Below are positions 16,557 to 34,070 of a DNA stretch of 64,000 nt, in pieces. The stretch lies in the IMG/VR virus record IMGVR_UViG_3300021961_000025; one strand, given 5' to 3'. The notes beneath the pieces are model-generated. The model had not been told where the DNA came from and did no database searches. It saw only the letters and a list, made by a program, of their open reading frames with translations. Each line of letters starts with the position of its first letter. Position 1 is the first letter of the stretch. The position numbers and the translations under genes are program-made. This DNA comes from a virus.

Positions 16557-16563
16557 CAATACT

Positions 16564-16755
16564 ATGTTGAACTATATCAACAACACTCTGGACAGCATTT
16601 CAACTGCTGCCAAAAAATTTGTCGAAACATTTACTTTCGACAGCAAACTAAAATCAATCGCCCACGATCAGATCGATGCTAATACTGCATATGCGAAAGC
16701 TACTGCACGTGTTACCGATACAGTTGTATCTGAATTTGCGAAAGGAGTAAAATAA
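16564..16755 (+). CDS. small amphipathic helical protein (phasin-like?)
   Basis: Strong SD; cotranscribed with hsp20. Confidence 0.5.
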   Translation: MLNYINNTLDSISTAAKKFVETFTFDSKLKSIAHDQIDANTAYAKATARVTDTVVSEFAKGVK

Positions 16756-16756
16756 T

Positions 16757-17200
16757 ATGACACTCCCTAGCATTTTTGGAAACTTCAAAGACTTTGATCG
16801 AGTATGGGTTGGATTTGATGAGCAATTAGAAAGAATGCACGAGATGCATGATATGATTGCTAAAAACATTCCCAACTATCCACCTTATAATCTTAAGAAA
16901 GTGGATGAAAACAAATACGTCATCGAGATGGCAGTAGCTGGCTTTGCAAAAAGCGACATCGAAGTAACAATCGATGATGGCAAACTGATCATCGAAGGTA
17001 AAGTAAAAGAAGACACTGAGGACAAAAAAGATGAACTATTCCTATTTCAAGGTCTAGCAAATCGTGCGTTCAAACGTGCCTTTACATTATCTGATCACAT
17101 CGAGATCAATAATGCAGAATATCTAAATGGTATTCTAAAAGTAGTCTTGGAAAAAGTAATTCCAGAACACAAAAAACCTAAGAAGATCGACGTTAAGTAA
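16757..17200 (+). CDS. hsp20: small heat shock protein Hsp20 (IbpA-like)
   Basis: NYPPYNL, IEMAVAGF, GLANRAFKRAF, A.YLNGIL, PEHKKPKKI. Confidence 0.95.
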   Translation: MTLPSIFGNFKDFDRVWVGFDEQLERMHEMHDMIAKNIPNYPPYNLKKVDENKYVIEMAVAGFAKSDIEVTIDDGKLIIEGKVKEDTEDKKDELFLFQGLANRAFKRAFTLSDHIEINNAEYLNGILKVVLEKVIPEHKKPKKIDVK

Positions 17201-17210
17201 ATCTTAATTT

Positions 17211-17242
17211 GGAGGTGGGGAGTTCGCTCCCCATCTCTTTTT
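17211..17242 (+). terminator. intrinsic terminator
   Basis: GAGGTGGGGAG-TTCG-CTCCCCATCTC followed by TTTT. Confidence 0.85.
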
Positions 17243-17257
17243 ACATTTAGATTTACC

Positions 17258-17280
17258 TGCAAGAAAAAATAAAGTATAAT
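17258..17280 (+). promoter_or_regulatory. putative middle promoter TGCAA-N12-TATAAT
   Basis: Motif geometry. Confidence 0.6.
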
Positions 17281-17357
17281 GTATATTGTGGATGAATAGT
17301 AGCGAGAGTGAAGTCCATCCACATTTTATTAACACACAAACACACAGGAGAAAAATC

Positions 17358-17600
17358 ATGGCTAAACCTATGACACCTTTTGAAATACGTCTCGACCTAT
17401 TAAAAATGGCTAAAGAGATGTTGGAATCAGATTGTTACGCAAAGCGACAAGCAGCAGATAACAAATGGTTTCAAGATGTTGAAATTGCTCGTACTAAAGG
17501 CGAAGCAATTCCAGCAACACCAGAACTAGTACCATTCCCTACTGAAGAAAAAATAATCGCTAAGGCACAAGCACTTAACGACTTCATCAGTAATGGGTAA
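17358..17600 (+). CDS. conserved T4-like hypothetical protein
   Basis: TPFEIRLDLLKMAKEML...FPT...I..KA..LN.FI; AGGAGA SD. Confidence 0.65.
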   Translation: MAKPMTPFEIRLDLLKMAKEMLESDCYAKRQAADNKWFQDVEIARTKGEAIPATPELVPFPTEEKIIAKAQALNDFISNG

Positions 17601-17639
17601 TTAATAGGAGAGAGGGGAGCAATCCCCTCTCATTGACTT

Positions 17640-17897
17640 ATGGACATAAACTTAATATACGTTATTTTACTGGCAGTAATCTTTCTTGGACTATTTGCTG
17701 CTCCCTACTATACAATCAAAACAATTTTTATAATTTGTATGATTGGATTTCTTATTGGATTCCTTACAGGGTGCCAATCAGAGAATTGGAGTTTCACACC
17801 AAACGCAAAGATAAAAACAGATGAAATATCAAGAGACAAACCAACCAAAGGAATTGAAATCGAAGAAGTCCAAGGACAAATCGAATACAAATTCTAA
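17640..17897 (+). CDS. hypothetical membrane/lipoprotein
   Basis: Two hydrophobic segments followed by LTGC. Confidence 0.4.
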   Translation: MDINLIYVILLAVIFLGLFAAPYYTIKTIFIICMIGFLIGFLTGCQSENWSFTPNAKIKTDEISRDKPTKGIEIEEVQGQIEYKF

Positions 17898-18320: not shown

Positions 18321-20825
18321 ATGGTTGGAGGAAGTTCTTTGTCGTTTTATACTAATGTTCACCAGTGGGGTAACACTTTGCTGGTTCGATCGATCGTCAA
18401 TGGTCGTCACAAACTTGATAAGATTAACTTCAAACCATCTGTTTGGACTACACAAGGCAAAGGTGATACCGAATACAAAACACTTGATGGTCGTCCTTGT
18501 TATGAGATTGAAATAGACTCTATCAAAGAGGCACGTGACTTTGTTGAACGTTACAAAGACGTAGCTGGATTCGAAATCCATGGTCAATTAAACTGGATGT
18601 ATCAGTGGCTGTGGAAACAGTATCCATCTGACATTCAATGGGATATGGATCAGATCCGTATCTATTCTCTCGATATCGAGACTTCTTCAGAAAATGGCTT
18701 TCCGTCTGTCGAGTTAGCAAATGAAGAAGTCCTTCTTATTTCCATTCAAAACTATAACACCAAAGAAATCCTAACTTGGGGTACTCGTCCATACACTGGC
18801 GATGCCACCAACTTCACATTTAAAGAATTCAAAAAAGAATCAGATATGCTAATCGACTTTGTTGATTGGTGGAAGAAGAACACACCTGACGTTGTTACAG
18901 GTTGGAATATTAACTTCTTCGATATCCCATTCTTGTATCGTCGTATCGCTAGAGTGATTGGCGAAGATTACGCTAAACAATTAAGTCCTTGGAAGATTAC
19001 CAAAGAACGTGAGATCTTTGTTCGTGGTAACAAAGAGTTTGCTTATGATATCGCTGGAGTAAGTCAGCTTGACTTCCTAGATCTTTATAAGAAATATACT
19101 TATACAATGCAAGAGTCTTATCGTCTTGACAATATCGCTAAGGTTGAGTTGGGCGAAGAGAAATTAGATCATACTGAATACGCAACGTTCCAGGAATTCT
19201 ATCAAAACAATTGGAATAAGTTTGTTGAGTATAACGTTCACGACGTTGTGTTGGTTGACAAACTCGAAGATAAAATGCGATTGATTGAACTTCAATTGAC
19301 TATGGCGTATGGTGGTAAGATTAATTATGAAGATGTATTCTCACAAGTTAGAATGTGGGATATGCTTGTTCATAATCACTTACGTGAAGACAATATCATT
19401 ATCCCTCCGAAAAAATCTAATAGCAAATCCTCTCAATATGAGGGTGCTTATGTAAAAGATCCATTGGTTGGTATGCATAAGTGGATTGCTTCATTTGACT
19501 TGAACTCTCTATATCCACATTTGATTATGCAATATAATATCTCACCTGAAACTCTTTTGCCTTATGGTGAAAAGTCTGGTGTTGAACATTACCTACGTAA
19601 CAAAGCAGAACCACAAACTGATGTAGCTGTTGCTGCAAATGGTAGTTGTTATCGAAAAGATAAGATTGGTGTATTCCCTAAGATTATGGAAGATCTTTAT
19701 CGTGAGCGAACAGTAGCGAAAAAAGAAATGCTTGCTGCTGAACAACAGTATCAGAATACAAAAGATCCTGCGTATAAAAAGATTATCTCTCGAAAGAACA
19801 ATCTACAAATGGCGATGAAGATCGCATTGAACTCTGCTTATGGTGCAATGGGTAATGAATGGTTCCGATACTTTGATATTCGTATGGCTGAAGCAATTAC
19901 AGTTTCTGGTCAGTTATCCATTCGTTGGATTCACGATAAGATGAATGAGTATCTTAATAAGATTATCGGAACGACTGGCGTAGATTATATTATTGCTGTT
20001 GATACCGATTCAATTTATGTAACGTTTGAAAAACTAATTGATAAAGTATTTACGGAAGAACAACAAAAAGATACAGCAAAGGTTATTCGTTTTATGGATA
20101 AGATTTGCGAAGAGAAGTTTCAACCATTCATTGATGATTGTTATGTTGATCTCGCAAAACGTATGAATGCGTTTGATCAAAAGATGAATATGAAACGAGA
20201 AGTATTGGCTGACAAAGGTATCTGGACTGCCAAGAAACGATATGTTCTTTCAGTGCATAACTCTGAGGGTGTTCAATACGCTGAACCAAAATTAAAAGTA
20301 ATGGGATTGGAGATGATTAAATCTTCAACTCCTCAAGCAATTCGTGAAGCATTGCGACATGCTTTACCAGTTATTCTCCATAAAACTCAATCAGATCTTT
20401 ACTCCTTTATTAATGAGTTTCGTGAGAAGTATGATACCTTATCGGTCGAGGACATTGCGTTTCCTAGATCGGTAAATGGTATCAAGACGTATGGTGATCC
20501 TTCACACATTTATACTAAAGGAACACCATTCCATTGTCGTGGTGCATTAGTTTATAATTATCATCTTAAAGATAAAAAATTAACTAATCGTTATCCATTG
20601 ATTAAAGAGGGCGAAAAGATTAAGTATGTATTCTTGAAAGTCCCTAACACTGTGCAAGAAAACGTCATTTCTTTCATATCTGAATTACCGAAAGAACTGG
20701 ATCTTCACAAATACATAGACTATGATATGCAATTCGAGAAGTCTTTTCTAGATGCTTTACAAATCGTTGTCCATCCATTAGGTTGGAAGGTAAGGGAAAC
20801 AGCTAGTCTTGAAGACTTCTTCTAA
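18321..20825 (+). CDS. 43: family B DNA polymerase (start probably TTG 18339)
   Basis: DIET exonuclease motif, SFDLNSLYPH, KIALNSAYG, DTDS, KKRY, C-terminal SLEDFF clamp-binding motif. Confidence 0.98.
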   Translation: MVGGSSLSFYTNVHQWGNTLLVRSIVNGRHKLDKINFKPSVWTTQGKGDTEYKTLDGRPCYEIEIDSIKEARDFVERYKDVAGFEIHGQLNWMYQWLWKQYPSDIQWDMDQIRIYSLDIETSSENGFPSVELANEEVLLISIQNYNTKEILTWGTRPYTGDATNFTFKEFKKESDMLIDFVDWWKKNTPDVVTGWNINFFDIPFLYRRIARVIGEDYAKQLSPWKITKEREIFVRGNKEFAYDIAGVSQLDFLDLYKKYTYTMQESYRLDNIAKVELGEEKLDHTEYATFQEFYQNNWNKFVEYNVHDVVLVDKLEDKMRLIELQLTMAYGGKINYEDVFSQVRMWDMLVHNHLREDNIIIPPKKSNSKSSQYEGAYVKDPLVGMHKWIASFDLNSLYPHLIMQYNISPETLLPYGEKSGVEHYLRNKAEPQTDVAVAANGSCYRKDKIGVFPKIMEDLYRERTVAKKEMLAAEQQYQNTKDPAYKKIISRKNNLQMAMKIALNSAYGAMGNEWFRYFDIRMAEAITVSGQLSIRWIHDKMNEYLNKIIGTTGVDYIIAVDTDSIYVTFEKLIDKVFTEEQQKDTAKVIRFMDKICEEKFQPFIDDCYVDLAKRMNAFDQKMNMKREVLADKGIWTAKKRYVLSVHNSEGVQYAEPKLKVMGLEMIKSSTPQAIREALRHALPVILHKTQSDLYSFINEFREKYDTLSVEDIAFPRSVNGIKTYGDPSHIYTKGTPFHCRGALVYNYHLKDKKLTNRYPLIKEGEKIKYVFLKVPNTVQENVISFISELPKELDLHKYIDYDMQFEKSFLDALQIVVHPLGWKVRETASLEDFF

Positions 20826-21438: not shown

Positions 21439-22497
21439 GTGATGAACTATTTAAAAGACATGGTAAAAAGTCTTGACAATGAGTATGCTGGACTTGCCGA
21501 TTCAGGCATTGTTGGTGATACTACACAGTTTATCGATACAGGTTCTTATTCTTTCAATGCATTGTTGAGTGGATCAATTTATGGTGGTCTACCTAACAAC
21601 AAGGTAACTGCATTGGCAGGTGAGTCCAGTACTGGTAAAACTTTCTTTGCTCTAGGAGTTTGTAAAAACTTTCTAGACTCGCATCCAGAGGCAGGTATTT
21701 TATACTTCGAATCTGAGGGTGCATTGACTAAAGATATTTTAGTCGAACGTGGAATCGATCCAAAGCGATTTGTATTAATTCCAGTTACAACTATTCAAGA
21801 ATTTAGAACTTCAGCAATGAAGATTCTTGACAATCATCAAAATGTTCCAAAAGATGCTCGTAAACCTATTATGTTCGTTCTTGACTCATTGGGTATGCTT
21901 TCAACTGAGAAAGAAGTCCAAGACGTTTCAGATGGAAAAGATGTTCGTGATATGACTCGTGCACAACTTGTGCGTGGTGCATTCCGAGTGTTGTCATTGA
22001 AACTTTCTAAACTTGACGTACCTATGATTGTAACAAATCATACATATGATGTAATTGGTTCTTATGTTCCAACTAAAGATATGGGTGGTGGTGGAGGATT
22101 GAAATATGCTGCATCAACTATCGTGTTCTTAAGTAAGTCTAAAGACAAAGACGGAACAGAAGTAATTGGTAATATCATTAAATGTAATCTACAAAAATCT
22201 CGTTTCACTAAAGAGAACTCAAGATGTGAATCTAAACTTAACTTCAAAACAGGTTTAGATCGTTATCACGGATTGACTGATCTTGCAGTTGAAGCAGGTA
22301 TTTGGGAGTCGTCTGGTGGACGTATTACTGTTGATGGTAAAAAAGTTTTTGGTAAAAACATTGCACAAAATCCAGAACAATTCTTTACTGATGAAGTAAT
22401 GAAGAAATTGGATGTTTATGTTGGCACCAAATACAAATATGGTACAGGTGATGTTGTCGAAACAGAAGTGGAAGAGACTCTTGAAACTGAAGAATAA
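21439..22497 (+). CDS. uvsX: RecA-like recombinase UvsX
   Basis: AGESSTGKT, LDSLGML, TNHTY, MGGG.GLKYAAS. Confidence 0.96.
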   Translation: MMNYLKDMVKSLDNEYAGLADSGIVGDTTQFIDTGSYSFNALLSGSIYGGLPNNKVTALAGESSTGKTFFALGVCKNFLDSHPEAGILYFESEGALTKDILVERGIDPKRFVLIPVTTIQEFRTSAMKILDNHQNVPKDARKPIMFVLDSLGMLSTEKEVQDVSDGKDVRDMTRAQLVRGAFRVLSLKLSKLDVPMIVTNHTYDVIGSYVPTKDMGGGGGLKYAASTIVFLSKSKDKDGTEVIGNIIKCNLQKSRFTKENSRCESKLNFKTGLDRYHGLTDLAVEAGIWESSGGRITVDGKKVFGKNIAQNPEQFFTDEVMKKLDVYVGTKYKYGTGDVVETEVEETLETEE

Positions 22498-23020
22498 TAC
22501 ACCTATCAATGCCGAGTTTACTGAGCAGGTTGAGGAAACTCAGCCTGTTCTTCAAACTAATAAAGGGGAGATGCCAGCATTCCCTTTACTTTCTAAAGAT
22601 TCGTTTGAATCCGAAGAGGCATATTTAAAAGCAAAAGATGATTATGAAAAGGGACTCACTCATTTTCCTGGAGTCCCACATGAAGTATTAAAAGAATATG
22701 GCAATACAGGTTTTAATAAAATACGCTTTACTGCAGGATTATTAGAGGGTATAATAGTCTCTTTTGGTAGAGTTAATTTTAACACAGAAGACAATGGTGA
22801 AATTAAGTTATCATTCGACTATGAAACGGATGGTAAGCCAAAGTATCGAATGGTTCACAAGGAAGAAATGGAAAAGCTACTTGGGGACTTTTTAATGTCA
22901 CTGATCGAAGAAGAGATGCGTACTAAAAAAGCAATCTTCCAAGGTGGCAAAGATGAAATGGAGAAATATATTAATGACGAGAATAGAAACAACAATCCTG
23001 AAGAATCTGATTCACGATGA
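22412..23020 (+). CDS. hypothetical protein in the gp40 position (start uncertain)
   Basis: Between uvsX and 41 as in T4; beta-rich core. Confidence 0.45.
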   Translation: MFMLAPNTNMVQVMLSKQKWKRLLKLKNNTPINAEFTEQVEETQPVLQTNKGEMPAFPLLSKDSFESEEAYLKAKDDYEKGLTHFPGVPHEVLKEYGNTGFNKIRFTAGLLEGIIVSFGRVNFNTEDNGEIKLSFDYETDGKPKYRMVHKEEMEKLLGDFLMSLIEEEMRTKKAIFQGGKDEMEKYINDENRNNNPEESDSR

Positions 23021-24368
23021 GGAATATCTACGTAAGGTAGTACCACATTTATCAGACAAATACTTCGGTGATCAAATTGAAAAAGCAATCGCTGAGAACA
23101 TCATCGAATTCTTTGGTAAGTATAACAAAGCACCAACACAAGAAATCCTAGCAATCGAACTAGGTAATCGTAAGGATCTATTCCAAGACGATTTCAAAAA
23201 AGCAACTTCTTATATTGATAAACTTACACCTGAAACAACTAACAAAGATTGGTTGATTGATGAAACTGAAAAGTGGTGTAAGAATCGAGCAGTCTATAAT
23301 TCTATTATGGATTCAATTAAGATTATTGATGGTCGTGATAAGCAACACAATCAAGATGCCATTCCTCATCTATTACAAACAGCACTTGGTGTATCCTTTG
23401 ACAAATCTGTAGGGCATGATTATATTGACGACTATGAAGCACGATACGAATTCTATCATCGTGTTGAAGAAAAGATTCCATTTGATCTAGACATGTTAAA
23501 CACCATTACACGTGGTGGATTATCTAAGAAAACTCTAAACATTATCCTTGCAGGTACTGGCGTTGGTAAGTCACTCTTTATGTGTCACCATGCAGCATCA
23601 GTTCTAATGCAAGGTAAAAACGTATTATACATATCTCTAGAGATGGCTGAAGAACGTATTGCTGAACGTATCGATGCAAATCTATTGAATCTTGGTATGG
23701 ATGAATTGAAAGTAGTTGATAAAACTATCTTCGGTAATCGTGTTAAAAAGATTTCTGATAAAACACAAGGTAAGTTGATCGTTAAAGAATATCCAACTGC
23801 GAGTGCACATTCTGGTCACTTCCGTGCATTACTTGAAGAATTGAAAATGAAAAGAGACTTTACGCCAGATATCGTCTTTATTGATTATTTGAATATTTGT
23901 TCTTCACAAAGATTGCGTGCAGGGGGAAATATTAATTCTTATACATATGTAAAGGCAATTGCTGAAGAATTGCGTGGTTTGGGAGTAGAGTATAACGTAC
24001 CTATCGTTTCTGCAACTCAAACGACAAGATCTGGTTATACCAATACTGATTTGGGATTAGAAGATACTTCTGAATCGTTTGGTTTACCTGCAACTGCTGA
24101 CTTGATGATTGCTCTTATTTCTACTGAAGAACTAGAGGAACTTGGTCAGTTAATGGTTAAACAATTGAAGAATCGATATAACGATCCATCTTATTATAAG
24201 AGATTTGTAATTGGCGTTGATCGTTCGAAGATGAAATTGTTTAATGTAGAATTATCGGCTCAACAGAATATTGCAGATAGTGGGCAAGGTAAACAAAAAG
24301 AAGAGAAGTCTTTATTTGATCAATCCCCAATCGGTAAGAGATTGGCTACTGAAGGATTCAAATTTTGA
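22974..24368 (+). CDS. 41: replicative DNA helicase
   Basis: AGTGVGKS, SLEMAEE, IDYLNI, ATQTTR, SESFGLPATAD, KNRY. Confidence 0.97.
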   Translation: MTRIETTILKNLIHDEEYLRKVVPHLSDKYFGDQIEKAIAENIIEFFGKYNKAPTQEILAIELGNRKDLFQDDFKKATSYIDKLTPETTNKDWLIDETEKWCKNRAVYNSIMDSIKIIDGRDKQHNQDAIPHLLQTALGVSFDKSVGHDYIDDYEARYEFYHRVEEKIPFDLDMLNTITRGGLSKKTLNIILAGTGVGKSLFMCHHAASVLMQGKNVLYISLEMAEERIAERIDANLLNLGMDELKVVDKTIFGNRVKKISDKTQGKLIVKEYPTASAHSGHFRALLEELKMKRDFTPDIVFIDYLNICSSQRLRAGGNINSYTYVKAIAEELRGLGVEYNVPIVSATQTTRSGYTNTDLGLEDTSESFGLPATADLMIALISTEELEELGQLMVKQLKNRYNDPSYYKRFVIGVDRSKMKLFNVELSAQQNIADSGQGKQKEEKSLFDQSPIGKRLATEGFKF

Positions 24369-24369
24369 T

Positions 24370-24392
24370 TGCAACAAATAATAGTGTATAAT
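24370..24392 (+). promoter_or_regulatory. putative middle promoter driving the modification locus
   Basis: TGCAA-N12-TATAAT. Confidence 0.6.
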
Positions 24393-24424
24393 ACTAATAA
24401 ACAAAGAACGAAAGAGAAAAAACA

Positions 24425-25720
24425 ATGGTAAAAACTATCACAGCACCTATCAAATATGATGCTGAACATCTAGTTGGACAGTTTGTTGACGAGTCCCACT
24501 ATGATACTCTGATTGAAGAGGATTGTGATTTTTATGCGCCAACTCCAGTTGGTGAAGAAAATAGCGAAGAAAATATTATTTTCAAGTTTCGTAAAAATTA
24601 CTTCACGAAAGAAGAACAAGATACTGCTTACGCTGGTTTGCGTGAAGCAGCAGTAGAAACTCAAAATCGTGGTATGGCAGCAGGACCAAAAGCTGGTTCT
24701 CTTGGCAATCGTGAATGGGTTACTGAATACCAAATGGAAATTATGGATGCGTTTTGCAAACCTACAGAAAATCTATTTGGTGTAGATCGTATCGACGAGA
24801 TTAAGAATAAGTATGGTGACAATCGTGCATCTGCTCCATCTTCTCGTGGAGTTGTTTGGTCAATTAACCGAACTAAAGATGAAGGATTCGAATTTGATGC
24901 ATGGGTTGAAGACACTCGTAAGATGTCTCAAGATGATGCAAAGACAGAATCTGAGCGAGTATTGAAGCAGTTGGTATGTGCCACTACTTATGCTAACTCA
25001 GTATTCTCAGGTATCGCTGGATTCTTTGATCGTTATCCTCGTATTCCATGGGGACGTCCAACAGCATTTACTGAAAAGAATCAAGCCAAGTATGAAATGG
25101 CATTCCCATTCCTACAACATTTGAGTAAGGGATTCAAAGATCTATTACCTATTCGTTATGGTAAGCAAATTGCTGCATGCGAAAAACTAGATTCAAAATT
25201 TGTTATTCCTGGAACACCATTCACTACTGTCACAGTAAATAAAACTTTTAGAACTGCTGCACACCGAGATGCTGGAGATTTGAACGATGGATTCTCGAAC
25301 CTTACTGTTGTCTCTAATAATGGTAAGTATGTGGGTGGTTATCTCGTCTTTCCTGAGTTTCGTGTTGCAGTAAACATTCGTCCTGGAGATCTACTTCTTG
25401 TGAACAATCACGAGGGTATCCATGGCAATACTGAAATGACAGCTGAAGAGGGAGCAGAGCGTATATCATTCGTTTGTTACTTCCGTGAGAAAATGCTAGA
25501 ACTTGGTTCTTGGGATTACGAAATGACTCGTAAACAGTTTGTTGAAGATCGTAAGAATAACAAAGAGCATCCTCAACAAAAGCATTTGTGGAATGGCGTA
25601 AGCGAAGGTATGTGGGAAAGTCAAGAGTGGTATGATTATCTAACAGAACGATTGGGTGAGAATACTGTAATGACTTATCATCCTAATGCTGTTAAGTCTT
25701 CACTTGAGGCATTCTTTTAA
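24425..25720 (+). CDS. TET/JBP-family 2OG-Fe(II) dioxygenase
   Basis: FTTVTVN..FRTAAHRDAGD (HxD), GGYLVFP, HEGIHGNT (distal H), RISFVCYFRE; C-terminal SLEAFF clamp-binding-like motif. Confidence 0.85.
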   Translation: MVKTITAPIKYDAEHLVGQFVDESHYDTLIEEDCDFYAPTPVGEENSEENIIFKFRKNYFTKEEQDTAYAGLREAAVETQNRGMAAGPKAGSLGNREWVTEYQMEIMDAFCKPTENLFGVDRIDEIKNKYGDNRASAPSSRGVVWSINRTKDEGFEFDAWVEDTRKMSQDDAKTESERVLKQLVCATTYANSVFSGIAGFFDRYPRIPWGRPTAFTEKNQAKYEMAFPFLQHLSKGFKDLLPIRYGKQIAACEKLDSKFVIPGTPFTTVTVNKTFRTAAHRDAGDLNDGFSNLTVVSNNGKYVGGYLVFPEFRVAVNIRPGDLLLVNNHEGIHGNTEMTAEEGAERISFVCYFREKMLELGSWDYEMTRKQFVEDRKNNKEHPQQKHLWNGVSEGMWESQEWYDYLTERLGENTVMTYHPNAVKSSLEAFF

Positions 25721-26415
25721 TGTGCGCAATCGTTGGTATCTCAATCAAAGGTATAACACCTCAACAAGAATTACGTGTAGAACGATTAATTCGTGAAGCA
25801 ATGATTCGTGGTAAACATGCCACTGGAGTTAGTTATATCCAAAAAGGTAAACTACAATCTATAAAAGAACCTATCCCTGCAGATGAATTTATGCAGAAGT
25901 ATCCAATCGACAACTTTGTTGATTTAGATGGATGGAAACGTGATCTCTTTATGATTGTTCATTGCAGATATTCAACGTCAGATATTAAATACAACCAACC
26001 CTTTTTCAATAAGAGTTTTTCACTAGCACACAATGGTGTGATTAGTCAAGAACTACCAGAGAATTGGGAAAAACTGTATGGCTTTAAATGTGAGACCAAG
26101 AACGACAGTGAACTACTCTTTCACACTGTCGTTGCTGGTCAATCACCACTTAAAGTTTGGCAGGAATCCTCAATTGCAGCAGTAGAATTATATGATAATT
26201 ACAATCTTCGTTTTTATCGTAATGGTCGAAGACCACTGCACTTGACTGATATTGGTACTGGGTATATAATTACTTCTACGAAAGATATTGTTAAACGATC
26301 AGGATTTGATATTATAGATGAACAGGGAGTTGTTCCTGGAACTTATTTTAATCTTGAGAAAGACCATACTATGTCGTTTGAAGATTCAGGAGTGAAAATA
26401 GATGACTTACAATAA
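25720..26415 (+). CDS. class II (Ntn) glutamine amidotransferase
   Basis: N-terminal MC, RG.HATG, HCRYST, QP, HNGVI, NDSE. Confidence 0.88.
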   Translation: MCAIVGISIKGITPQQELRVERLIREAMIRGKHATGVSYIQKGKLQSIKEPIPADEFMQKYPIDNFVDLDGWKRDLFMIVHCRYSTSDIKYNQPFFNKSFSLAHNGVISQELPENWEKLYGFKCETKNDSELLFHTVVAGQSPLKVWQESSIAAVELYDNYNLRFYRNGRRPLHLTDIGTGYIITSTKDIVKRSGFDIIDEQGVVPGTYFNLEKDHTMSFEDSGVKIDDLQ

Positions 26416-27283
26416 AGAAAATTTTACATGGGGTTATGAAGTAGAATGGGGCGATATCGATCGTCGTCTAACTATCCCTGCAGATCTCGGTAAGTGGGAA
26501 TATGCAGAAACTGATATTGTTAATCTACACGAACCTTTCCAATATATTGCTTGCGATCCACTAGGTGAAGAACCATATATGGGTGGCGAAGTAAATATGA
26601 TGCCGACTAAAACTTGGCAAGAACAAGTAGATCGTATTATCGACCTACGAGAGTTTTTCAAATACCACGGAAACCAACCTACTGCGTCTTGTGTTAATCA
26701 CGGACATCTACACGTTTATGTTCCTGGATTGAAAGATGACATCGGTGCTCTTAAGAAACTGATTGCTTATATCAAAGCAAATCAAAATGCAGTAATTGAA
26801 CATTGTTATGGGTTTTACGATCATCCAGAAATGAAGAACAGTAAAGGTGCAAAGATGTATCTTAAGTTTGATGGTGGTCGTCCAATGCCAGATTATATGT
26901 GTGACAATATTATTAATCTTGCTACCGACTTTGATCATTTTATTAAACTCCATGCTGCAGGTAAAGATGGTGTGTCAATGGGTAGACCATTTAGATTCGC
27001 TATTAATACCTATTGTATGAAACATACTGGAACAATTGAGTTTCGTTGTTTCCGATCTACAACTGATACACAACAGATTAAAGATCAGTTTAAATTTGCT
27101 GAGAAGTTTGTTGATGCAGCATTGAACGATGGACCAAGTGTAGAAAACATTTTATTCGAACAAGGTTATAATTATAACTTTCCTCCATTTGTATGGGACT
27201 GGAAAGAATATAATGGTTGGGTAAATACCAAATACGAAAAAGAGCGTGGTAATAAAGTAAGAGAATACCATGAAGTTGCATAA
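26402..27283 (+). CDS. amidoligase (COOH-NH2 ligase / GCS-GS fold)
   Basis: GYEVEW, GGEVN..PT, HLHV, TIEFRCF. Confidence 0.75.
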   Translation: MTYNKENFTWGYEVEWGDIDRRLTIPADLGKWEYAETDIVNLHEPFQYIACDPLGEEPYMGGEVNMMPTKTWQEQVDRIIDLREFFKYHGNQPTASCVNHGHLHVYVPGLKDDIGALKKLIAYIKANQNAVIEHCYGFYDHPEMKNSKGAKMYLKFDGGRPMPDYMCDNIINLATDFDHFIKLHAAGKDGVSMGRPFRFAINTYCMKHTGTIEFRCFRSTTDTQQIKDQFKFAEKFVDAALNDGPSVENILFEQGYNYNFPPFVWDWKEYNGWVNTKYEKERGNKVREYHEVA

Positions 27284-27821
27284 AGTAACAAGAGAGCAAT
27301 TCGTTTCAGCAATCACTGATGATCCTGCTGATAAGTTTGCGAAAACTTTTGTTGCGAAAGCCAATATGCAAGAGCAGTGGGAGTGTGGCTCTCATCATCT
27401 TTGTATGGGTTTATGGGATGAAGATAAACTAATGGGTGCTATTATTACTTCTATCTCTAAACGAGATCCAAAGGTAGCCAATCTACAATTACTACATACA
27501 TTTGCTGCATATCGTGGTAAAGGTGTAGGTAAAACTCTTTCATTAGACAGTTTACGTTATGCGATACACGAGAAAGCACAATACTTCCGTGTCAGTGCAG
27601 AGATACCAGCAATAGAATTTTATAAGAAAATTGGCTTTGAAATGCTAGGAGAACAGAAGTCTGGATGTCAACTAAGTATGTTCAAAGTTAATCCAGAAAT
27701 GAAATCCTTTGAAGAGGGTGATTACGATATTAATGATGCAACAATCTTCAACGCAGTATATAAAAAAGGTAAAGGTGGTTGTGTTAAAGTTTTCAAAGAA
27801 ACAGAATCACTTTTTGGGTAG
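27270..27821 (+). CDS. GNAT acetyltransferase
   Basis: YRGKGVGK acetyl-CoA motif A; AIEFYKKIGF. Confidence 0.88.
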   Translation: MKLHKVTREQFVSAITDDPADKFAKTFVAKANMQEQWECGSHHLCMGLWDEDKLMGAIITSISKRDPKVANLQLLHTFAAYRGKGVGKTLSLDSLRYAIHEKAQYFRVSAEIPAIEFYKKIGFEMLGEQKSGCQLSMFKVNPEMKSFEEGDYDINDATIFNAVYKKGKGGCVKVFKETESLFG

Positions 27822-27824
27822 GCA

Positions 27825-28415
27825 ATGAACCAGTATTACTTTCATCTTTCAATACCAGAAATAAAACATCCTTTAAATGAAGTAGGACAGAAATGGTTTG
27901 ATGCTCTTAAAGGTGGGCATTGGAACATTCCTCGTGAATATATCTCTAACGATTTAATTAAATTTGCACCAAAGGTTGGATTGCAATTCTTTGATGCAGA
28001 AGTCTTCAGTCTTCCTGCAAACTATCAATTACAAATTCACGTAGATGCTACGAATATGTCACGTAAGTGTAAACTTAATTGGGCATATAGCGAGGGTGAG
28101 CATTACAATGTTTGGTATACTCCCAAGAAAACTTGGAGTAGAATAGCTACTGCAGAAGAACAGAGTGATGGTGCATTAGACGATTACTCTTTTGTATTTG
28201 AATTAGATGAAGTGGATGAAGTAGCAAGGACTGTACTAAAGAATCCTACTGCTGTAGTAAGTGGTCAACCACATAGTGTGATTACTACGACACATCCAAG
28301 AAAGTCTATCTCTGTTACTCTTATGCCAAAGGGAACAATTCCATTTGAAAAAGATTGGGGTATTCCTATTGACGAAATGAGAAACTATTTGAAAGACTAC
28401 ATTATTAATGACTGA
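27825..28415 (+). CDS. cupin / 2OG-Fe(II)-like enzyme
   Basis: IHVD, KLNW, PHSV, R.SIS. Confidence 0.55.
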   Translation: MNQYYFHLSIPEIKHPLNEVGQKWFDALKGGHWNIPREYISNDLIKFAPKVGLQFFDAEVFSLPANYQLQIHVDATNMSRKCKLNWAYSEGEHYNVWYTPKKTWSRIATAEEQSDGALDDYSFVFELDEVDEVARTVLKNPTAVVSGQPHSVITTTHPRKSISVTLMPKGTIPFEKDWGIPIDEMRNYLKDYIIND

Positions 28416-29439
28416 TTTCCGTGAACAAAAAAATCGACGTGAAGCATTTATCAGATGGTATGCTTGGTCGATAAAATATAAAGATTGTGATCCATCAGTT
28501 TGGATGACAAACTATCTAAACGATAGATACGAACATAATACTGAAGAAAGGTTTTGGTTGTGTTGGCTATACGGAAATACATATTATCTGCCAACCTCAT
28601 GGGTACTAAAAAATGAATTTCCTGACTACGAACTTGCAACAATTGACAGACTCAATTGGTGGAATAGTGAAAACTATAAACGACTACGTTATCAAACAGA
28701 TACAAAATATAACAAAGGACATCTCCCACAGATGTTCGAATCTTACCAAAGAGAAATTGGTAAATCTCTTCAATCCAAGTACTTTGAAAACTTATTGGGA
28801 GACAATGAAACAGATTCCTTCCACAGAGTATGGGAAACTGTCAAAAAGAACTTTCATAAATTTGGTAGATACACTACTTGGTTTTACATGCAACATTTGT
28901 ATTCTACTTGTAATCTCCCTGTGGTTCCTAACACTCTTTGGTTTTCTGATCATTCTGGGAGTAGGAGTCATCGTAATGGTTTTCTTTTTGCACTTGGAAG
29001 AGAAGATCTTATCGACGAGAAACTGGATACAAAACAAACAGAGTGGCTCGAATCTGAAGGGAAGTCTTTCCTCGAAGAAATGAACAGACGTTATCCAGAG
29101 TATAAAAAAGATATTAACTTTTATACAATGGAAACTTGTCTATGTTCGTTTAAGAAAATCTTCCGTGAACACCATGGACGTTATCTTGGTTATTACCTAG
29201 ATCGTCAAGCAGAAGAAATCTCTCAAGTCCAAAGTGATGGATGGTATGGTATTGAGTGGGACGTATTATGGCAAGCACGAAGTGAAATGCTAGATCCTCG
29301 TCTTATCGATAAACGAGGTATCAATAAAGAAAAGTTTGCAAATTTTATTAATACTGGATCAATGGATCGTTTGGAATGGATGTATGATGATGTATCCTCA
29401 AATCAATTCTTTTCTCTAGAAAATGCCTTGCAATATTAA
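28408..29439 (+). CDS. aGPT-PPlase clade 2 / amino acid:DNA transferase-like protein
   Basis: DCDP, RFWLCWLYGNTY, FGRY..WFY, SRSHRNG, ET.LC.FKK, RYLGYY.DR. Confidence 0.75.
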   Translation: MTDFREQKNRREAFIRWYAWSIKYKDCDPSVWMTNYLNDRYEHNTEERFWLCWLYGNTYYLPTSWVLKNEFPDYELATIDRLNWWNSENYKRLRYQTDTKYNKGHLPQMFESYQREIGKSLQSKYFENLLGDNETDSFHRVWETVKKNFHKFGRYTTWFYMQHLYSTCNLPVVPNTLWFSDHSGSRSHRNGFLFALGREDLIDEKLDTKQTEWLESEGKSFLEEMNRRYPEYKKDINFYTMETCLCSFKKIFREHHGRYLGYYLDRQAEEISQVQSDGWYGIEWDVLWQARSEMLDPRLIDKRGINKEKFANFINTGSMDRLEWMYDDVSSNQFFSLENALQY

Positions 29440-29451
29440 TTGTAGTATAAT
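29429..29451 (+). promoter_or_regulatory. putative middle promoter
   Basis: TGCAA-N12-TATAAT. Confidence 0.6.
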
Positions 29452-29454
29452 TAT

Positions 29455-29691
29455 ATGAAGAAAACGAAAACTTACATACATGTCAACCAACACGTTATAC
29501 GAGCAAATAAAAAGAATGGGACGTCAGATCCTGTTATTACTGTCAAGCAAGGACGAAAGAACACTTATTGTTCAGAGGTTAAAGTCCTTGGTCCATGCAC
29601 CATTGTTTATGGGGGTAATGATAAACCTATTCTTTCTTGTGGTGCTAGGGTTGTTATATTAACTGAATCGGAAGTGGAGATAATTAAATGA
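29455..29691 (+). CDS. conserved phage hypothetical protein
   Basis: IHVNQHVIRANKK...P.LSCGARV. Confidence 0.65.
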   Translation: MKKTKTYIHVNQHVIRANKKNGTSDPVITVKQGRKNTYCSEVKVLGPCTIVYGGNDKPILSCGARVVILTESEVEIIK

Positions 29692-30239
29692 GTTTAAAAC
29701 TAATTGGAATAGTCGGCATGCCAGGAACTGGTAAAACTACGTTGATGAAAGAGTGGATGGCAAAACGAGAGTGGACAAAAGACACTCCAGTTAAATTGCT
29801 TGATAGTCTAATTAGTGGCGACATTCGCTTATTTGGTAAGTATGAAGAGGGTGATACCTTTGCTGGTACAGATAAACTCTCTATGGCTGTCCAACCTGCA
29901 GCACTAGAATACATACGTATGCCTACTCACGATGTTAATATATTCGAGGGAGATCGTCTAACTTCCTTTGCTTTCTTTAATGAAGCAGTTAAAGAGGGTT
30001 ATGATGTTTCTATTATCGTTCTAAAAGTATCTGATGCAATTCGAGAGCAACGTTATAAAGAGCGTGGATCCGACCAATCAGAAACCTTTATTCAAGGACG
30101 TAGAACTAAGATCGAGAATATCATTAATAGGTTTAGTGGCTCTCCATTGACTGGAGATCCCTCTCTTGTCACAGAGTTCGAACACTCTACACCTGAAGAC
30201 ACACAAAAAATCATTGCCCATATTGAATCTTTGCTCTAG
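29688..30239 (+). CDS. P-loop nucleotide kinase of the type associated with DNA hypermodification
   Basis: GMPGTGKTT, GKY...FAGTDKLSMAVQP, FEGDRL, RY..RGS.Q. Confidence 0.75.
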   Translation: MSLKLIGIVGMPGTGKTTLMKEWMAKREWTKDTPVKLLDSLISGDIRLFGKYEEGDTFAGTDKLSMAVQPAALEYIRMPTHDVNIFEGDRLTSFAFFNEAVKEGYDVSIIVLKVSDAIREQRYKERGSDQSETFIQGRRTKIENIINRFSGSPLTGDPSLVTEFEHSTPEDTQKIIAHIESLL

Positions 30240-30310
30240 TTTGCAAGGATTGCCTTTTCCTAAATAACTTTGGGACGTCTAATTCTAGTTTCTATTAAAA
30301 GGAGTCGACG

Positions 30311-30799
30311 ATGGCAAAGGTTTATACCAGAGGTGGAAGTACCTCTCAGAAAAAATACTTGCAATCTTTAACAGAGTACGCATTACCACTACTGATGTCG
30401 AAAAGACTAGCAAACACGCTAGAGATTACCTACAGAATAGTTCCAAATCTATACACTAAATATGATATAATGGGTGACGCATGGTCGCAAGACGATGGAC
30501 GTTATCCAAAAGAATTTATAGTTCGACTAGACGCATCACTACCTTTACGTGATTTTCTAGAGACTGCATCTCATGAGTTAGTCCACGTTAAACAATGGGC
30601 AACTAATCAAATGAGAGATTACGAAAAGAGTGAAGAGATCACTCGTTATAATAGCAAAAAGATTAACACTAACAAAGTAGACTACTGGGATCTTCCATGG
30701 GAAATTGAGGCACATGGTCGTGAAGTGGGCATTTTTATTAGATGGGTTCAGCATGCTAAATTAGAAAACCGACAATGGGCTAAATGGAAGAGTAAATGA
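30311..30799 (+). CDS. HExxH zincin-like metallopeptidase
   Basis: HELVHVKQW...PWEIEA; CTAAATA at 30260-30266. Confidence 0.65.
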   Translation: MAKVYTRGGSTSQKKYLQSLTEYALPLLMSKRLANTLEITYRIVPNLYTKYDIMGDAWSQDDGRYPKEFIVRLDASLPLRDFLETASHELVHVKQWATNQMRDYEKSEEITRYNSKKINTNKVDYWDLPWEIEAHGREVGIFIRWVQHAKLENRQWAKWKSK

Positions 30800-32073
30800 T
30801 AAAATCCTCGCCGACTGCACAACGTGCGATTATTAACTATTTTAAAACAAAATTAAAAACTGAAGCTGGAGTCAAGTTAGTTGAATCTAGTAGAGGTGGT
30901 GCTCATTTACGATTTAATTATGCAGGCGACGTTTCTAAACTACTTAAAAAACATCACAATGTAGAGATTCGTAATAGTGATCAATCGATTTCTGGAACAT
31001 TTACTACACAAGAAATTATTCTTAAAGAAAAGATCGGTGGTGCTGCAGTAAACGATGGTGCTTATCTTGTTGTTACTACGTCAAGCAAGGGTGTTCTCTC
31101 TACTAAAAATTTAACTCCAGACGAATTAAAACTTCCTGGAGTCCATAAGAAAAATACATTTAAGAAAGATGTTATTGCTGGACTTAAAGCAAGTTCTTCT
31201 CCAGTTAACATTAGAGAATTTTGTAAAGATCTACTCGATGCCTCAGAAAGATCTGATGGTAAAATCGAAAGTGAGTTTATGGATAGTATTAGCAACAGTG
31301 ATATTACTACTATTGCTAAAAACTTTGGTGAGATCTCTGGTGCATTATGGTATATGACTCACTATAATAAAAAAGCCACTGCTGTAGAATATCCAAACGA
31401 AAGTAACTTTCCTCTTGTAGATTATTTTATTCACGAAGACAAAAAGAAAATCGCAGTATCAGCAAAAGCCAATGATGGTGCTCCACCAAGTATTAATGCA
31501 ATTGCTGATGTATTAAGAAAAAAGAAATATACTGATAGTAAAAAGGAAGACGCAAGGAAAGCAATTATTGCTATTAGCGATTCTTCTACTGTAGATGGTA
31601 TTATTAATGCCTCTAAAGAATTGAGTACTGATGGGTATAAATGGGTAAGTAAAGAATTTAAAAAGGGACAAGTGTTTACTGCTGCAGATTGCGAAACGTT
31701 TCTGTCCTCGTATAAGTCTGGTAAATCAGTATTTGCAGAATTAGAACCATTGTATAAATTAATTGGTCGTGCTGCATCATTAGACATTATTGAACGAACA
31801 ATGAAAGCCAATGGTAAGCGATGGGGATTTATCATCTCTCCAATGGGCTATGCTTTGGTCGATCAGCTAAATAAGACAGAGAAGTATATAGAAGTCTTAA
31901 ACGATGCTGCAAAAGAGATCCAACTAGAACAGCTATACATTAAGATCAAGTTAAGTCAGAAAGCAGTGTCTTACGAAGTCAAGTTATTTGGTACTTCGAA
32001 GTTCAAATTCGAGTACAATGCGAACGCTGGGCAACCCTCTTTGAAGAAAATTTCCTTCAAAATGGAGAAATAA
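30796..32073 (+). CDS. putative PD-(D/E)xK restriction-like endonuclease
   Basis: NFGE...YP...NFPLVDY...AVSAK pattern. Confidence 0.45.
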   Translation: MIKSSPTAQRAIINYFKTKLKTEAGVKLVESSRGGAHLRFNYAGDVSKLLKKHHNVEIRNSDQSISGTFTTQEIILKEKIGGAAVNDGAYLVVTTSSKGVLSTKNLTPDELKLPGVHKKNTFKKDVIAGLKASSSPVNIREFCKDLLDASERSDGKIESEFMDSISNSDITTIAKNFGEISGALWYMTHYNKKATAVEYPNESNFPLVDYFIHEDKKKIAVSAKANDGAPPSINAIADVLRKKKYTDSKKEDARKAIIAISDSSTVDGIINASKELSTDGYKWVSKEFKKGQVFTAADCETFLSSYKSGKSVFAELEPLYKLIGRAASLDIIERTMKANGKRWGFIISPMGYALVDQLNKTEKYIEVLNDAAKEIQLEQLYIKIKLSQKAVSYEVKLFGTSKFKFEYNANAGQPSLKKISFKMEK

Positions 32074-32785: not shown

Positions 32786-34024
32786 GTGGCATTCGGATTT
32801 AAAGATTATTTAAAAGAACAGAAAAATACTCACATGGAGCATCTAGAGGATCTAGTGTTCAATGAGGGTATGGTTGGTACAAACAAAGCCATTAAATTCC
32901 TAGAGGATCTCTTGGGAATGCTTTCTGGTAATGCGACGACTAAAGTATCTGCCACTGTAAAGTGGGATGGTGCTCCTGCTATCTTTGCTGGTATTGATCC
33001 ACGAGATGGCAAATTCTTCGTAGCGAAGAAAGGTGTCTTCAATAAAGATCCTAAAGTTTACAAGACTGCTGCAGATATTAATGCTGACGTCTCTGGCGAT
33101 CTTGCTGCAAAATTAAAAGTAGCATTAGTTGAATTAAAGAAACTTGGTATTACCAAAGGTGTATTCCAAGGCGATCTAATGTTTACAAAATCAGATTTAA
33201 AAACAGAAAAAATTAATGGTGAGTCTTATTTGACTTTCCACCCTAACACTATTGTATACGCTGTTCCTCTTAAGAGTAATCTAGCGACACAAATTAAAAA
33301 AGCAAATATGGGTATCGTTTGGCATACCTCCTACGAAGGATCTTCATTTGAAACAATGAAAGCATCTTTCGGTAAAACTATTATGAATAAGTTAAAATCG
33401 TCTCCAAGTGTTTGGATGGACGATGCTAACTATAAAGATTATAGTGGTACAGCTACCTTTACCAAAGCTGAAACCACAGCAGTAACAAACGAAATTAAGA
33501 AAGCAAAGGCTCTTTCTTCTAGTTTGAATACTAAAATGGTAGATGACATTCATAAAGATGAAGCACTACTGACACATATTAAGACTTATAATAATACCAA
33601 AGTAAGAGAGGGTGAAGAAATTACAAACATTGCAGCACACGTTGCTGGGTTGTTTCATTATATTCACGATAAATATCAAAAAGAAATTGACTCCAAAAAG
33701 ACTGACAAATCGAAGTCTTCTTGGGAAGAAAAACGTAAGAATGTATTAAAGTATTTCTCGGCACACGATCAAAATGAGATCGTTAAAATCTTCGAACTAA
33801 CTAATCTTTTGACTTCCATCAAAAGTGCAGTTATTACCAAGATGAATCAAGCTGGTCATATCAATACATTCTTGAAAACTACAGACGGATTTAAGGTTAC
33901 TGGAGTTGAGGGATTTGTAGCTATTGACCACCTCTCTGGTAATGCTGTAAAGATTGTAGATAGGCTCGAATTTAGCAAATCTAACTTCTCTCCTGACATA
34001 ATTAAAGGGTGGCAGAAGAATTAA
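32786..34024 (+). CDS. DUF6267-like protein with ligase-type nucleotidyltransferase motifs
   Basis: KNTHMEHLED, TVKWDG (motif I), QGDL, EGFV, VKIVDR. Confidence 0.65.
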   Translation: MAFGFKDYLKEQKNTHMEHLEDLVFNEGMVGTNKAIKFLEDLLGMLSGNATTKVSATVKWDGAPAIFAGIDPRDGKFFVAKKGVFNKDPKVYKTAADINADVSGDLAAKLKVALVELKKLGITKGVFQGDLMFTKSDLKTEKINGESYLTFHPNTIVYAVPLKSNLATQIKKANMGIVWHTSYEGSSFETMKASFGKTIMNKLKSSPSVWMDDANYKDYSGTATFTKAETTAVTNEIKKAKALSSSLNTKMVDDIHKDEALLTHIKTYNNTKVREGEEITNIAAHVAGLFHYIHDKYQKEIDSKKTDKSKSSWEEKRKNVLKYFSAHDQNEIVKIFELTNLLTSIKSAVITKMNQAGHINTFLKTTDGFKVTGVEGFVAIDHLSGNAVKIVDRLEFSKSNFSPDIIKGWQKN

Positions 34025-34070
34025 GATTACTAAATAAGAGTGTATTAAACTAAATCGATGGACAAAAGAA

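Follow-up and report, generated by a model that had tools for sequence, protein, structure and literature searches.

A TET/JBP-linked operon in an uncultured T4-like phage and a putative route to amide-type thymidine hypermodification

We analyzed a 64,000-nucleotide stretch of IMG/VR virus record IMGVR_UViG_3300021961_000025 (hereafter the window). It comes from an uncultured T4-like phage with a G+C content of ~36%, and every gene in it lies on the + strand. The subject of this report is a cassette of eight open reading frames (ORFs) at window positions 24425-30239, which follows a gp41-type helicase gene and is a candidate system for the hypermodification of DNA. A first-pass annotation had described here an overlapping or abutting run of eight genes directly after helicase 41. 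This description proved accurate: at each junction, the two ORFs either share 1-14 nt or leave a gap of 3-15 nt. These overlaps and short gaps indicate that the layout is one translationally coupled operon on the plus strand.

Genes of the operon

The first gene (24425..25720, + strand) encodes a TET/JBP-family 5-methylpyrimidine dioxygenase of 431 aa, which matches PF12851 with an E-value of 1.8e-22 (79.8 bits; gathering cut-off 34.9). At least 95% of 47 homologues share its iron triad, H280-x-D282 and H333, and the 2-oxoglutarate (2OG)-binding R346. The protein has a C-terminal extension of ~80 aa that ends in SSLEAFF; the ~80 residues are those after C351.

Next in the operon (25720..26415, +) is a stand-alone glutamine amidotransferase (GAT) of class II, i.e. 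of the N-terminal nucleophile (Ntn) type, with a length of 231 aa and a match to GATase_6 at 1.3e-8. The protein starts with MC, and 21 homologues retain its Cys2, R83, H104-N105-G106 and D129. From the roles of their counterparts in GlmS and PurF we take the Arg, Asn-Gly and Asp to be glutamine-site residues. The GAT gene overlaps by 14 nt with the adjacent gene (26402..27283, +), which encodes a glutamine-synthetase (GS)-like COOH-NH2 ligase of the Amidoligase_2 family (293 aa). The match of this protein to PF12224 (1.2e-3; 19.2 bits) is below the cut-off of 22, and nine of ten homologues match the family, the best with 1.4e-8. Its invariant residues are E13/E15 (GxExE), E63 (GGE), H102/H104 (HxH) and E213-F-R215 (EFR). 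The Foldseek matches listed for its AlphaFold2 model (pLDDT 82) are GS-, GmaS-, YbdK- and gamma-GCS-type enzymes, albeit weak ones (E 1e-3 to 2e-2, TM 0.3-0.44); a search of the amidoligase profile against the PDB found nothing useful. A homologue (27% identity, E 3e-16) occurs in the cultured Vibrio phage 2.275.O (MG592671.1, L067:5866-6978), where it adjoins a 7-deazaguanine set of QueF-like, QueC-like, Ntn 'nucleophile aminohydrolase' and GTP cyclohydrolase I genes; in this phage, the amidoligase family may take part in another kind of DNA base modification.

The fourth gene (27270..27821, +) codes for a GNAT N-acyltransferase of 183 aa, which matches Acetyltransf_10 with 2.9e-14 (53.6 bits against a cut-off of 23.6) and contains an R-G-K-G-V-G-K motif of the CoA-binding type. 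It is followed by the gene of a small protein of 196 aa (g196; 27825..28415, +), which the first-pass annotation had called a cupin/2OG enzyme. No match was found in Pfam, and sequence and profile searches against the PDB found nothing. In an alignment of 23 sequences (g196 and 22 metagenomic homologues), H72-x-D74, H150 and R159-x-S161 are invariant. Foldseek returned only weak cupin matches for its AlphaFold2 model (pLDDT 90.7); the identity was settled by a wider VIA-align search, in which the best matches are all 2OG/Fe(II) oxygenases (Z 9.6-8.1). They include 1e5r, a proline 3-hydroxylase (Z 9.6), 7v4p, a nucleoside-antibiotic hydroxylase (Z 9.0), 6n1f (Z 8.6) and AspH (Z 8.4). We therefore describe g196 as a small oxygenase of the 2OG/Fe(II) type with a double-stranded beta-helix fold.

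The sixth gene (28408..29439, +) encodes an amino-acid:DNA transferase (AADT, formerly aGPT-Pplase2) of 343 aa, with a match to PF18724 (ADDT) at 1.6e-14 (54.7 bits; cut-off 26.2). It carries a conserved E242-T-C-L-C246 motif, in which E242 and C246 do not vary among 15 sequences. The Glu/Cys pair is essential in M6 gp51, ViI gp247 and PaMx11 gp46, the gp46 residues being E243, T244 and C247 (PMC11472151). The E-T-x-x-C spacing equals that of gp46, and in a BLAST alignment with a ViI-type homologue the motif region is in register to within 2 residues. Sequence and profile searches against the PDB did not reach the structure of PaMx11 gp46, so that the active-site correspondence is based on the motif spacing and the ViI-type pairwise alignment. 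The AADT is 26% identical to the ViI-type homologue over 92% of the protein and 20% identical to the PaMx11 type.

The operon ends with a 78-aa ORF (29455..29691, +; phrog_8676, 1.5e-21) and a kinase gene, which overlap by 4 nt, an arrangement indicative of translational coupling. Homologues of the 78-aa ORF are present in many phages without the cassette, e.g. in Methylophilales phage Melnitz (72%). Because of this wide distribution it was set aside as a pathway enzyme; it is probably not specific to the pathway. The kinase (29688..30239, +; 183 aa) is a P-loop nucleotide kinase of clade 3 (Ploopntkinase3, PF18751, 2.9e-17) with an intact Walker A motif, G10-x-P-G-x-G-K-T. A hairpin at 30226-30251 overlaps its stop codon.

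All of the family names proposed for these genes in the first-pass annotation, including the TET/JBP and AADT homologies on which its interpretation depended, have stood up to this analysis. Confirmation by profile HMM, which it had proposed for each family, was obtained above the cut-off for TET, AADT and GNAT; the match of the window amidoligase stayed just below the cut-off, and g196 matched no Pfam model. The cassette enzymes all keep their family features and an intact set of catalytic residues, which speaks for the pathway proposed below.

The C-terminus of the TET protein resembles that of the phage polymerase. Among 132 + strand ORFs of at least 50 aa in the window, two end in this way: TET with SSLEAFF and the family-B polymerase polB, a backbone gene at 18321-20825 (+), with ASLEDFF. 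The late sigma factor gp55 of the window has no SLExFF tail. T4/RB69 gp43 carries a C-terminal gp45-binding peptide, and the partner of the polB and TET tails is presumed to be the gp45-type sliding clamp of the window (13713-14375, +; phrog_223, 3.6e-72). The tails are, like the gp43 peptide, short, hydrophobic and C-terminal; here they occur on polB and TET and, in relatives, on most AADTs. The motif of the window, SLE(D/A)FF, differs from the gp43 peptide. Counted over distinct C-termini in relatives, the tail motif is present in polB (13/13), TET (30/32), AADT (14/20), GNAT (4/14) and kinase (1/15); it is missing from amidoligase (0/14) and helicase (0/16), and GAT reaches 3/21 on a loose pattern. 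In the literature that we searched, no paper ties clamp tails to hypermodification enzymes.

Cassette variants and fusion proteins

A scan of IMG/VR, together with look-ups of exact proteins, yielded 63 loci with a relative of the window TET. An AADT is present in 26 of the 63, and 25 of these 26 also have a GAT. The sole AADT locus without a GAT is that of the cultured Caulobacter phage Cr30 (L002, KF301602.1; positions 9001-17894), in which the AADT is only 28% identical to that of the window, the TET 45% (annotated as 'SNF2 DNA repair protein') and the kinase 37%; an inositol-1-phosphate synthase is encoded in the same 9 kb. Of the AADT loci, 21 are on contigs that extend far enough to show a kinase gene, and all 21 have one. 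Five loci have a GAT with no AADT detected, and in each of them the contig ends within 1.9 kb. The gene order in L059, a Logan contig, is identical to that of the window and its TET is 94% identical. The recurrence of the same gene order in many independent metagenomic phage contigs argues against a chance arrangement.

The cassette occurs in several versions. One has the order TET-GAT-amidoligase-GNAT-AADT-kinase, and another has the same order plus a ParB_N gene between GNAT and AADT. A short version, TET-GAT-GNAT-like-AADT-kinase, lacks the amidoligase and sometimes includes a radical-SAM gene; in L012 (13725-15155) and L054 this gene encodes a 476-aa protein (7e-13) between AADT and kinase. 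It recalls the M6 gp53 isomerase, an analogy that suggests yet another end product. A further version comes with a glycosyltransferase, a divergent amidoligase and a low-molecular-weight (LMW) phosphatase: in L025 (2975-5452), L033 and L058, a GT1 glycosyltransferase (5e-6) and the LMW phosphatase (3e-14) flank the divergent amidoligase.

A search for longer relatives of the cassette proteins revealed fusions, each type of which is represented by one to three sequences. The GAT, which is unfused in the window, is joined in relatives to AADT (three sequences), to amidoligase (one) and to GNAT (one). In the GAT-AADT fusions P0024, P0025 and P0026, which are diverged, an N-terminal GAT with the MC start and H-N-G is followed by a C-terminal AADT with an intact E(T/S)xxC motif. 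The genes of P0024 and P0025 were located on contigs L069 and L070, where the next gene encodes a 5-hydroxymethyl-dU (5-hmdU) kinase and a ThyA-like gene stands a few genes on; no amidoligase or GNAT homologue was detected at these two loci. Class-II amidotransferases are typically built of an N-terminal Cys-GAT domain and, after it, the acceptor domain. The agreement of the GAT-AADT fusions with this build argues that the AADT is the acceptor of ammonia. Identity between the window AADT and the corresponding domain is 42% for P0024 and 37% for both P0025 and P0026, and by sequence the window AADT is assigned to a GAT-associated subtype. The comparative evidence suggests that its donor would be ammonia from the GAT and not a free amino acid.

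Two other fusions contain the amidoligase. P0028 has the order amidoligase-GNAT-kinase and P0029 has a different domain order, GNAT-amidoligase-kinase; the kinase of both is a 5-hmdU kinase. P0028 and P0029 tie amidoligase and GNAT to a DNA kinase and are part of the evidence that the amidoligase would act downstream of the amine. Contig L072 encodes the P0028 fusion, an AADT that is short and of the PaMx11 type, and a flavoprotein of 284 aa; there is no GAT in the 14.8 kb examined. The best PDB match of the flavoprotein is PaMx11 gp47 (8Z2O/8Z79; 4.5e-9). PaMx11 gp46 and gp47 form the known route to 5-aminomethyl-dU, in which the flavin lyase gp47 converts N-alpha-glycinylthymidine (PMC8989533, PMC11472151). 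Amidoligase and GNAT thus come after either a GAT plus AADT or a glycine-type AADT plus lyase, which indicates that GAT plus AADT probably also gives 5-aminomethyl-dU.

In the window, g196 occupies the slot between GNAT and AADT in which relatives carry a ParB-like activator, a ParB_N protein of 420-450 aa in L008, L028, L037 and L042. A profile made from these four proteins was searched against all six reading frames of the 64-kb window and found no match (E up to 10), and ParB_N had no match in a 79%-complete relative. In the TET tree, ParB-bearing cassettes, which come exclusively from metagenomic contigs such as L008, fall at four separate places, and the TETs of L031 (no ParB) and L042 (ParB) are nearly identical. 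This scatter, together with the ParB-free relative, indicates that ParB is readily gained or lost in the lineage and that the window represents a ParB-free form. The idea that g196 is a degraded ParB was rejected (BLASTP against the L008 ParB-like protein, E 0.66). In the ParB-dependent subclass of thymine dioxygenases (T-dioxygenases) of O'Toole 2026, a co-located ParB is required and an extended C-terminus after the last conserved Cys is part of the trait; the neighbourhoods include GATases, P-loop kinases and AADTs, and some clade-C1 members are without ParB (PMC13229309). The window, with no ParB found in 64 kb, is not a member of this subclass.

The TET tree also bears on the history of g196. 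The TETs of the window, L059 and L004 are sister to those of L061, L062 and L065 (support 100/99). In these three sister phages, the genes after TET code for a glycosyltransferase-like protein, a HAD-like protein and an orthologue of g196, and GAT, AADT and kinase are missing. The TET of L061 (4257-8296) is 66% identical to that of the window and has the same SSLEAFF tail; the glycosyltransferase-like protein of this cassette has 334 aa (Pfam only at E 0.1) and the HAD-like protein 149 aa with a DxDGVL start. Judged from these genes, the cassette could be a base-J-like glycosylation route. L061 and L062 also contain a distant paralogue of g196. A tree of g196 groups the copies adjacent to TET in a single clade (98/93), to which members of tandem arrays next to a FabF-like ketosynthase do not belong. 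Such arrays, with 4-5 g196-like oxygenases directly upstream of the ketosynthase gene, are present in L064 (4804-8847) and in the contig of P0005; they indicate that the g196 family has expanded and is used outside DNA modification too. The position of g196 beside TET in two different cassettes suggests a recruit from this expanded oxygenase family, which was retained while the downstream chemistry was swapped. The g196 step, we infer, is probably tied to TET or to 5-hydroxymethyluracil (5hmU) rather than to the amino-derived side chain.

A proposed pathway and its alternatives

From these family identities and gene linkages we infer each of the chemical steps that follow. The TET of the window is a putative, and probable, DNA thymine hydroxylase, and the post-replicative conversion of T to 5hmU by this enzyme is the best-supported first step. 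ThyX, the flavin-dependent thymidylate synthase, is encoded in the window (45571-46254, +; Thy1, 3.5e-43) and in three of four related virus records; the phage makes dTMP in this way, which fits thymine as the starting base. Neither a C5-methyltransferase (PF00145) nor a ThyA-type enzyme (PF00303) was found among the + strand window ORFs of at least 300 aa, all of which were scanned against Pfam or PHROGs (smaller ORFs were scanned in part), nor did these families have a match in the four related records (41-79% complete). Related phage TET/JBP enzymes of clade C1, whose neighbourhoods contain GATases, P-loop kinases and AADTs, are post-replicative T-dioxygenases in vivo and in vitro (O'Toole 2026, PMC13229309). 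It is the combination of ThyX, the lack of the two other enzymes and these demonstrated T-dioxygenases that favours T to 5hmU. The same inference has been drawn for metavirome contigs that pair TET_JBP with a kinase and an AADT and have no dUMP hydroxymethylase (Lee 2021, PMC8989533).

In the proposed scheme, normal dTTP would be made via ThyX and incorporated by replication, after which TET would hydroxylate thymine in the DNA to 5hmU, probably while held on the new DNA by its polymerase-type tail for the gp45 clamp. The P-loop kinase would then phosphorylate the hydroxymethyl group; we consider it a 5hmU-in-DNA kinase because it is positioned beside the AADT in 21 loci. The conserved Cys of the AADT would attack C6, so that the phosphate is expelled and a nucleophile adds to the exocyclic methylene. 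We hold this general course, from ThyX and dTTP through TET, kinase and AADT substitution, to be likely. It coincides with the proposal of the first-pass annotation that the hydroxymethyl handle is made on DNA by TET/JBP, activated by the kinase, substituted by the transferase and tailored further, which is also the reading with the best support here (PMC13229309).

The later steps are more tentative. The nucleophile may be ammonia, freed from glutamine by the class-II GAT, so that the AADT would produce 5-aminomethyl-dU. The link between GAT and AADT is drawn because GAT is present in 25 of 26 AADT loci, including cassettes without an amidoligase, and because GAT-AADT fusions exist. The GS-like amidoligase could then use ATP to join a free carboxylate, possibly that of an amino acid, to the amine of 5-aminomethyl-dU, and the GNAT would cap a remaining amine. 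The end product would be an N-acylated aminomethyl-uracil that has not yet been characterised. This specific chemistry, in the order ammonia from GAT, 5-aminomethyl-dU, acylation by the amidoligase and cap by GNAT, is plausible, and we put it at slightly short of an even chance. That the operon as a whole is a post-replicative thymidine hypermodification system building an amide-type side chain is, on balance, the explanation that we favour. A bolder version, in which GAT-associated AADTs are glutamine-dependent 'ammonia:DNA transferases' with 5-aminomethyl-uracil in DNA as their direct product, the ligase forms a peptide-like amide, GNAT caps it, the 2OG enzyme oxidises it and TET is tethered to the clamp instead of being activated by ParB, is doubtful as a complete package; its product would be a thymine derivative of an as yet undescribed chemical class.

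Several observations weigh against this explanation. At E up to 0.1 the kinase matches only PF18751 and generic P-loop families, and it has no match to the 5-hmdU DNA kinase families PF18748, PF18747 and PF18723. We know of no AADT that uses ammonia. The small 2OG oxygenase would add an oxidation that has no assigned place in the scheme. P0027 (L073) is a fusion of GAT to amidoligase and, together with the overlap of these genes in the window, it raises the possibility that the GAT feeds the ligase. Fusions of neighbouring genes can in any case arise trivially or by assembly error, and the gp47 match of the L072 flavoprotein spans only its N-terminal 70 residues. The tails of the window AADT (FFSLENALQY) and GNAT (ETESLFG) are degenerate. 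Finally, some clade-C1 enzymes need ParB (PMC13229309), and none was found in the window.

The alternative that survives best is that the AADT installs a free amino acid, such as serine in ViI or glutamate in SP10, that amidoligase and GAT together amidate its carboxylate by the logic of asparagine synthetase or MurT/GatD, and that GNAT acetylates its amine, which would yield a fully capped amino-acid side chain. The adjacent GAT and amidoligase genes with their 14-nt overlap, as well as the fusion P0027, fit this order of events. It is also in line with the fact that, among characterised AADT types, that of the ViI serine transferase is the closest in sequence (26%), and with the amidoligase homologue (27%, 3e-16) that stands beside an Ntn aminohydrolase in the 7-deazaguanine cluster of the Vibrio phage. 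Under this scheme, however, the GAT has no ligase partner in those cassettes and fusions that contain GAT and AADT and lack an amidoligase; conversely, the examined 14.8 kb of L072 contains an amidoligase and no GAT. Furthermore, the GAT fusions have AADT domains that are far more similar to the window AADT (37-42%) than the types that use amino acids are (20-28%). We rate amidation of a transferred amino acid lower, as an unlikely explanation, because the GAT would be without a partner in many amidoligase-free cassettes.

It is less probable still that GAT and amidoligase make an unusual free amine or amide donor off the DNA, which the AADT then transfers to 5-phosphomethyl-uracil, so that only TET, kinase, AADT and GNAT touch DNA. 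PhiW-14 AADT does use a free amine, putrescine (PMC8989533), and the distribution of clamp-type tails agrees with such a division of labour, as they are found on TET, many AADTs and few GNATs (4/14), on no amidoligase, and on GAT in 3/21 cases by a loose pattern. Yet the kinase must act on DNA and is without a tail in the window, which makes the tail an unreliable marker, and the fusion of the amidoligase to a DNA kinase in P0028 and P0029 suggests that the ligase works at the DNA site. The remaining alternative, that the dioxygenase acts on 5-methylcytosine (5mC) and the cassette hypermodifies cytosine, draws on phage TETs of clades A and B, which oxidise 5mC, on the view of Burke et al. that kinase-mediated activation of 5-hydroxymethylcytosine is possible (both PMC8256090) and on the statement of O'Toole et al. 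(PMC13229309) that phage T-dioxygenases can also oxidise 5mC in vitro, but it is very improbable in view of the lack of PF00145 in the ORFs and records scanned, the presence of ThyX in the window and the fact that AADTs and their kinases have been characterised solely on 5hmU.

Genomic setting, known systems and significance

The cassette is embedded in a T4-like backbone. The DnaB/gp41-type helicase gene (22944-24368, +; phrog_19, 5e-127) is separated from the TET gene by 56 nt, and a promoter-like sequence, TTGATT-16-TATAAT, with 10/12 matches to the consensus is located in this gap at 24365..24392 (+). Since matches to this consensus are not above chance in the region (20 found, 24.9 expected), solely the position of the site is suggestive of a promoter role. 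Further backbone genes encode UvsX (21439-22497, +), a clamp loader and gp55, and the window also carries a ribonucleotide reductase. The polB protein is at most 53% identical to polymerases of cultured phages, the nearest being those of cyanomyoviruses, and megablast of the cassette DNA against 50,697 phage records gave no match. The replication genes are interspersed with genes for a peptide deformylase (7271-7861; 2.1e-37) and a CbbQ/NirQ-type AAA+ ATPase (11521-12696; 4.7e-14).

Two genes, g162 (30311-30799) and g425 (30796-32073), lie downstream of the kinase gene. The g162 protein has 162 aa and an HELVH (HExxH) motif; the g425 protein has 425 aa and no match in Pfam or PHROGs. The g162 homologue of L061 has a weak match to DUF6782, a putative metallopeptidase family (2.9e-4). 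In L059, L061, L062 and L065, g162 is retained downstream of the locus irrespective of the type of cassette, and homologues of g425 come after the kinase in L010, L011 and L059. Both were rejected as members of the system, as they are retained in relatives regardless of the cassette. Farther downstream (32786-36761) lie the genes for a DUF6267 protein (3.4e-107) and, after it, for a protein of 896 aa whose N-terminal domain is cytidylyltransferase-like; many relatives keep this pair downstream.

This type of cluster has already been published as a gene neighbourhood (Burke 2021, PMC8256090; Lee 2021, PMC8989533; O'Toole 2026, PMC13229309), and the TET T-dioxygenase, 5-hmdU kinase, AADT and acetyltransferase activities have each been demonstrated in other phages. 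The first-pass annotation had said that similar neighbourhoods were predicted and that their product was unknown; two of these papers bear this out, and they state the roles of the GATase and the amidoligase in TET_JBP/kinase/AADT clusters as unknown (PMC8989533; PMC13229309). Sequences 22-25 in Fig. 2 of Lee 2021 and the clade-C1 neighbourhoods of O'Toole contain the same enzyme families in one operon. Like the window, these clusters have no dUMP hydroxymethylase and no adjacent C5-methyltransferase, and a conversion of T to 5hmU on DNA would precede the kinase and AADT steps. The window differs from them by a 2OG oxygenase in place of ParB, a T4-like replication module and the clamp-type tail of TET. 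Three points are new: the ParB-free form with a TET-linked 2OG oxygenase, the tail of polymerase type that TET carries, and an order for the GAT, AADT, amidoligase and GNAT steps that is derived from the fusions.

Among characterised systems, PaMx11 shares with the window the logic of kinase, AADT and GNAT: its glycine:DNA transferase gp46, FAD lyase gp47, acetyltransferase gp48 and kinase gp49 lead to 5-acetylaminomethyl-dU. The proposed common intermediate is 5-aminomethyl-dU, and L072 joins a module of the gp46/gp47 type to the amidoligase-GNAT-kinase fusion. In PaMx11, however, a dUMP hydroxymethylase supplies 5hmU ahead of replication and the amine stems from glycine by oxidative cleavage, whereas glutamine, via the GAT, is its proposed source in the window. 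PaMx11 also lacks an amidoligase, TET and 2OG oxygenase, and the AADT of the window is ~20% identical to its type. ViI, with the serine:DNA transferase gp247 and the product 5-(2-aminoethoxy)methyl-dU, has the AADT family, the Glu/Cys motif and the order of kinase then transferase in common with the window. The hydroxymethyl group of ViI has a different origin, GAT, amidoligase, GNAT and TET are missing, and its PLP decarboxylase has no equivalent in the cassette.

The GAT of the window resembles the class-II enzymes GlmS, PurF and AsnB in its N-terminal Cys, Arg, Asn-Gly and Asp. Relatives share their build in that the GAT is fused N-terminally to its presumed acceptor, the AADT; the GAT of the window stands alone. 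Unlike in GlmS, PurF and AsnB, the proposed acceptor would be an intermediate of a DNA base, which is without precedent. Trypanosome JBP1/2 likewise begin the synthesis of a bulky base, base J, with the hydroxylation of thymine in DNA by a TET/JBP-family enzyme. Base J is then formed by direct glucosylation, whereas the window would follow the kinase/AADT route; the sister phages L061 and L065 pair TET with a glycosyltransferase-like gene.

Hypermodified DNA lets phages overcome restriction and CRISPR nucleases, and the modifications are a source of enzymes for DNA labelling and for sequencing chemistry. The locus and the fusions give a concrete, testable order of reactions, from glutamine ammonia to 5-aminomethyl-dU and its acylation, and the locus offers a natural ParB-free variant as well as a possible mechanism of clamp tethering. 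If the product were 5-acetylaminomethyl-dU or a similar compound, the phage would have a convergent route to a known base. If the proposed pathway is true, the known repertoire would gain the formation of amide bonds on a DNA base and an amidotransferase that acts on DNA.

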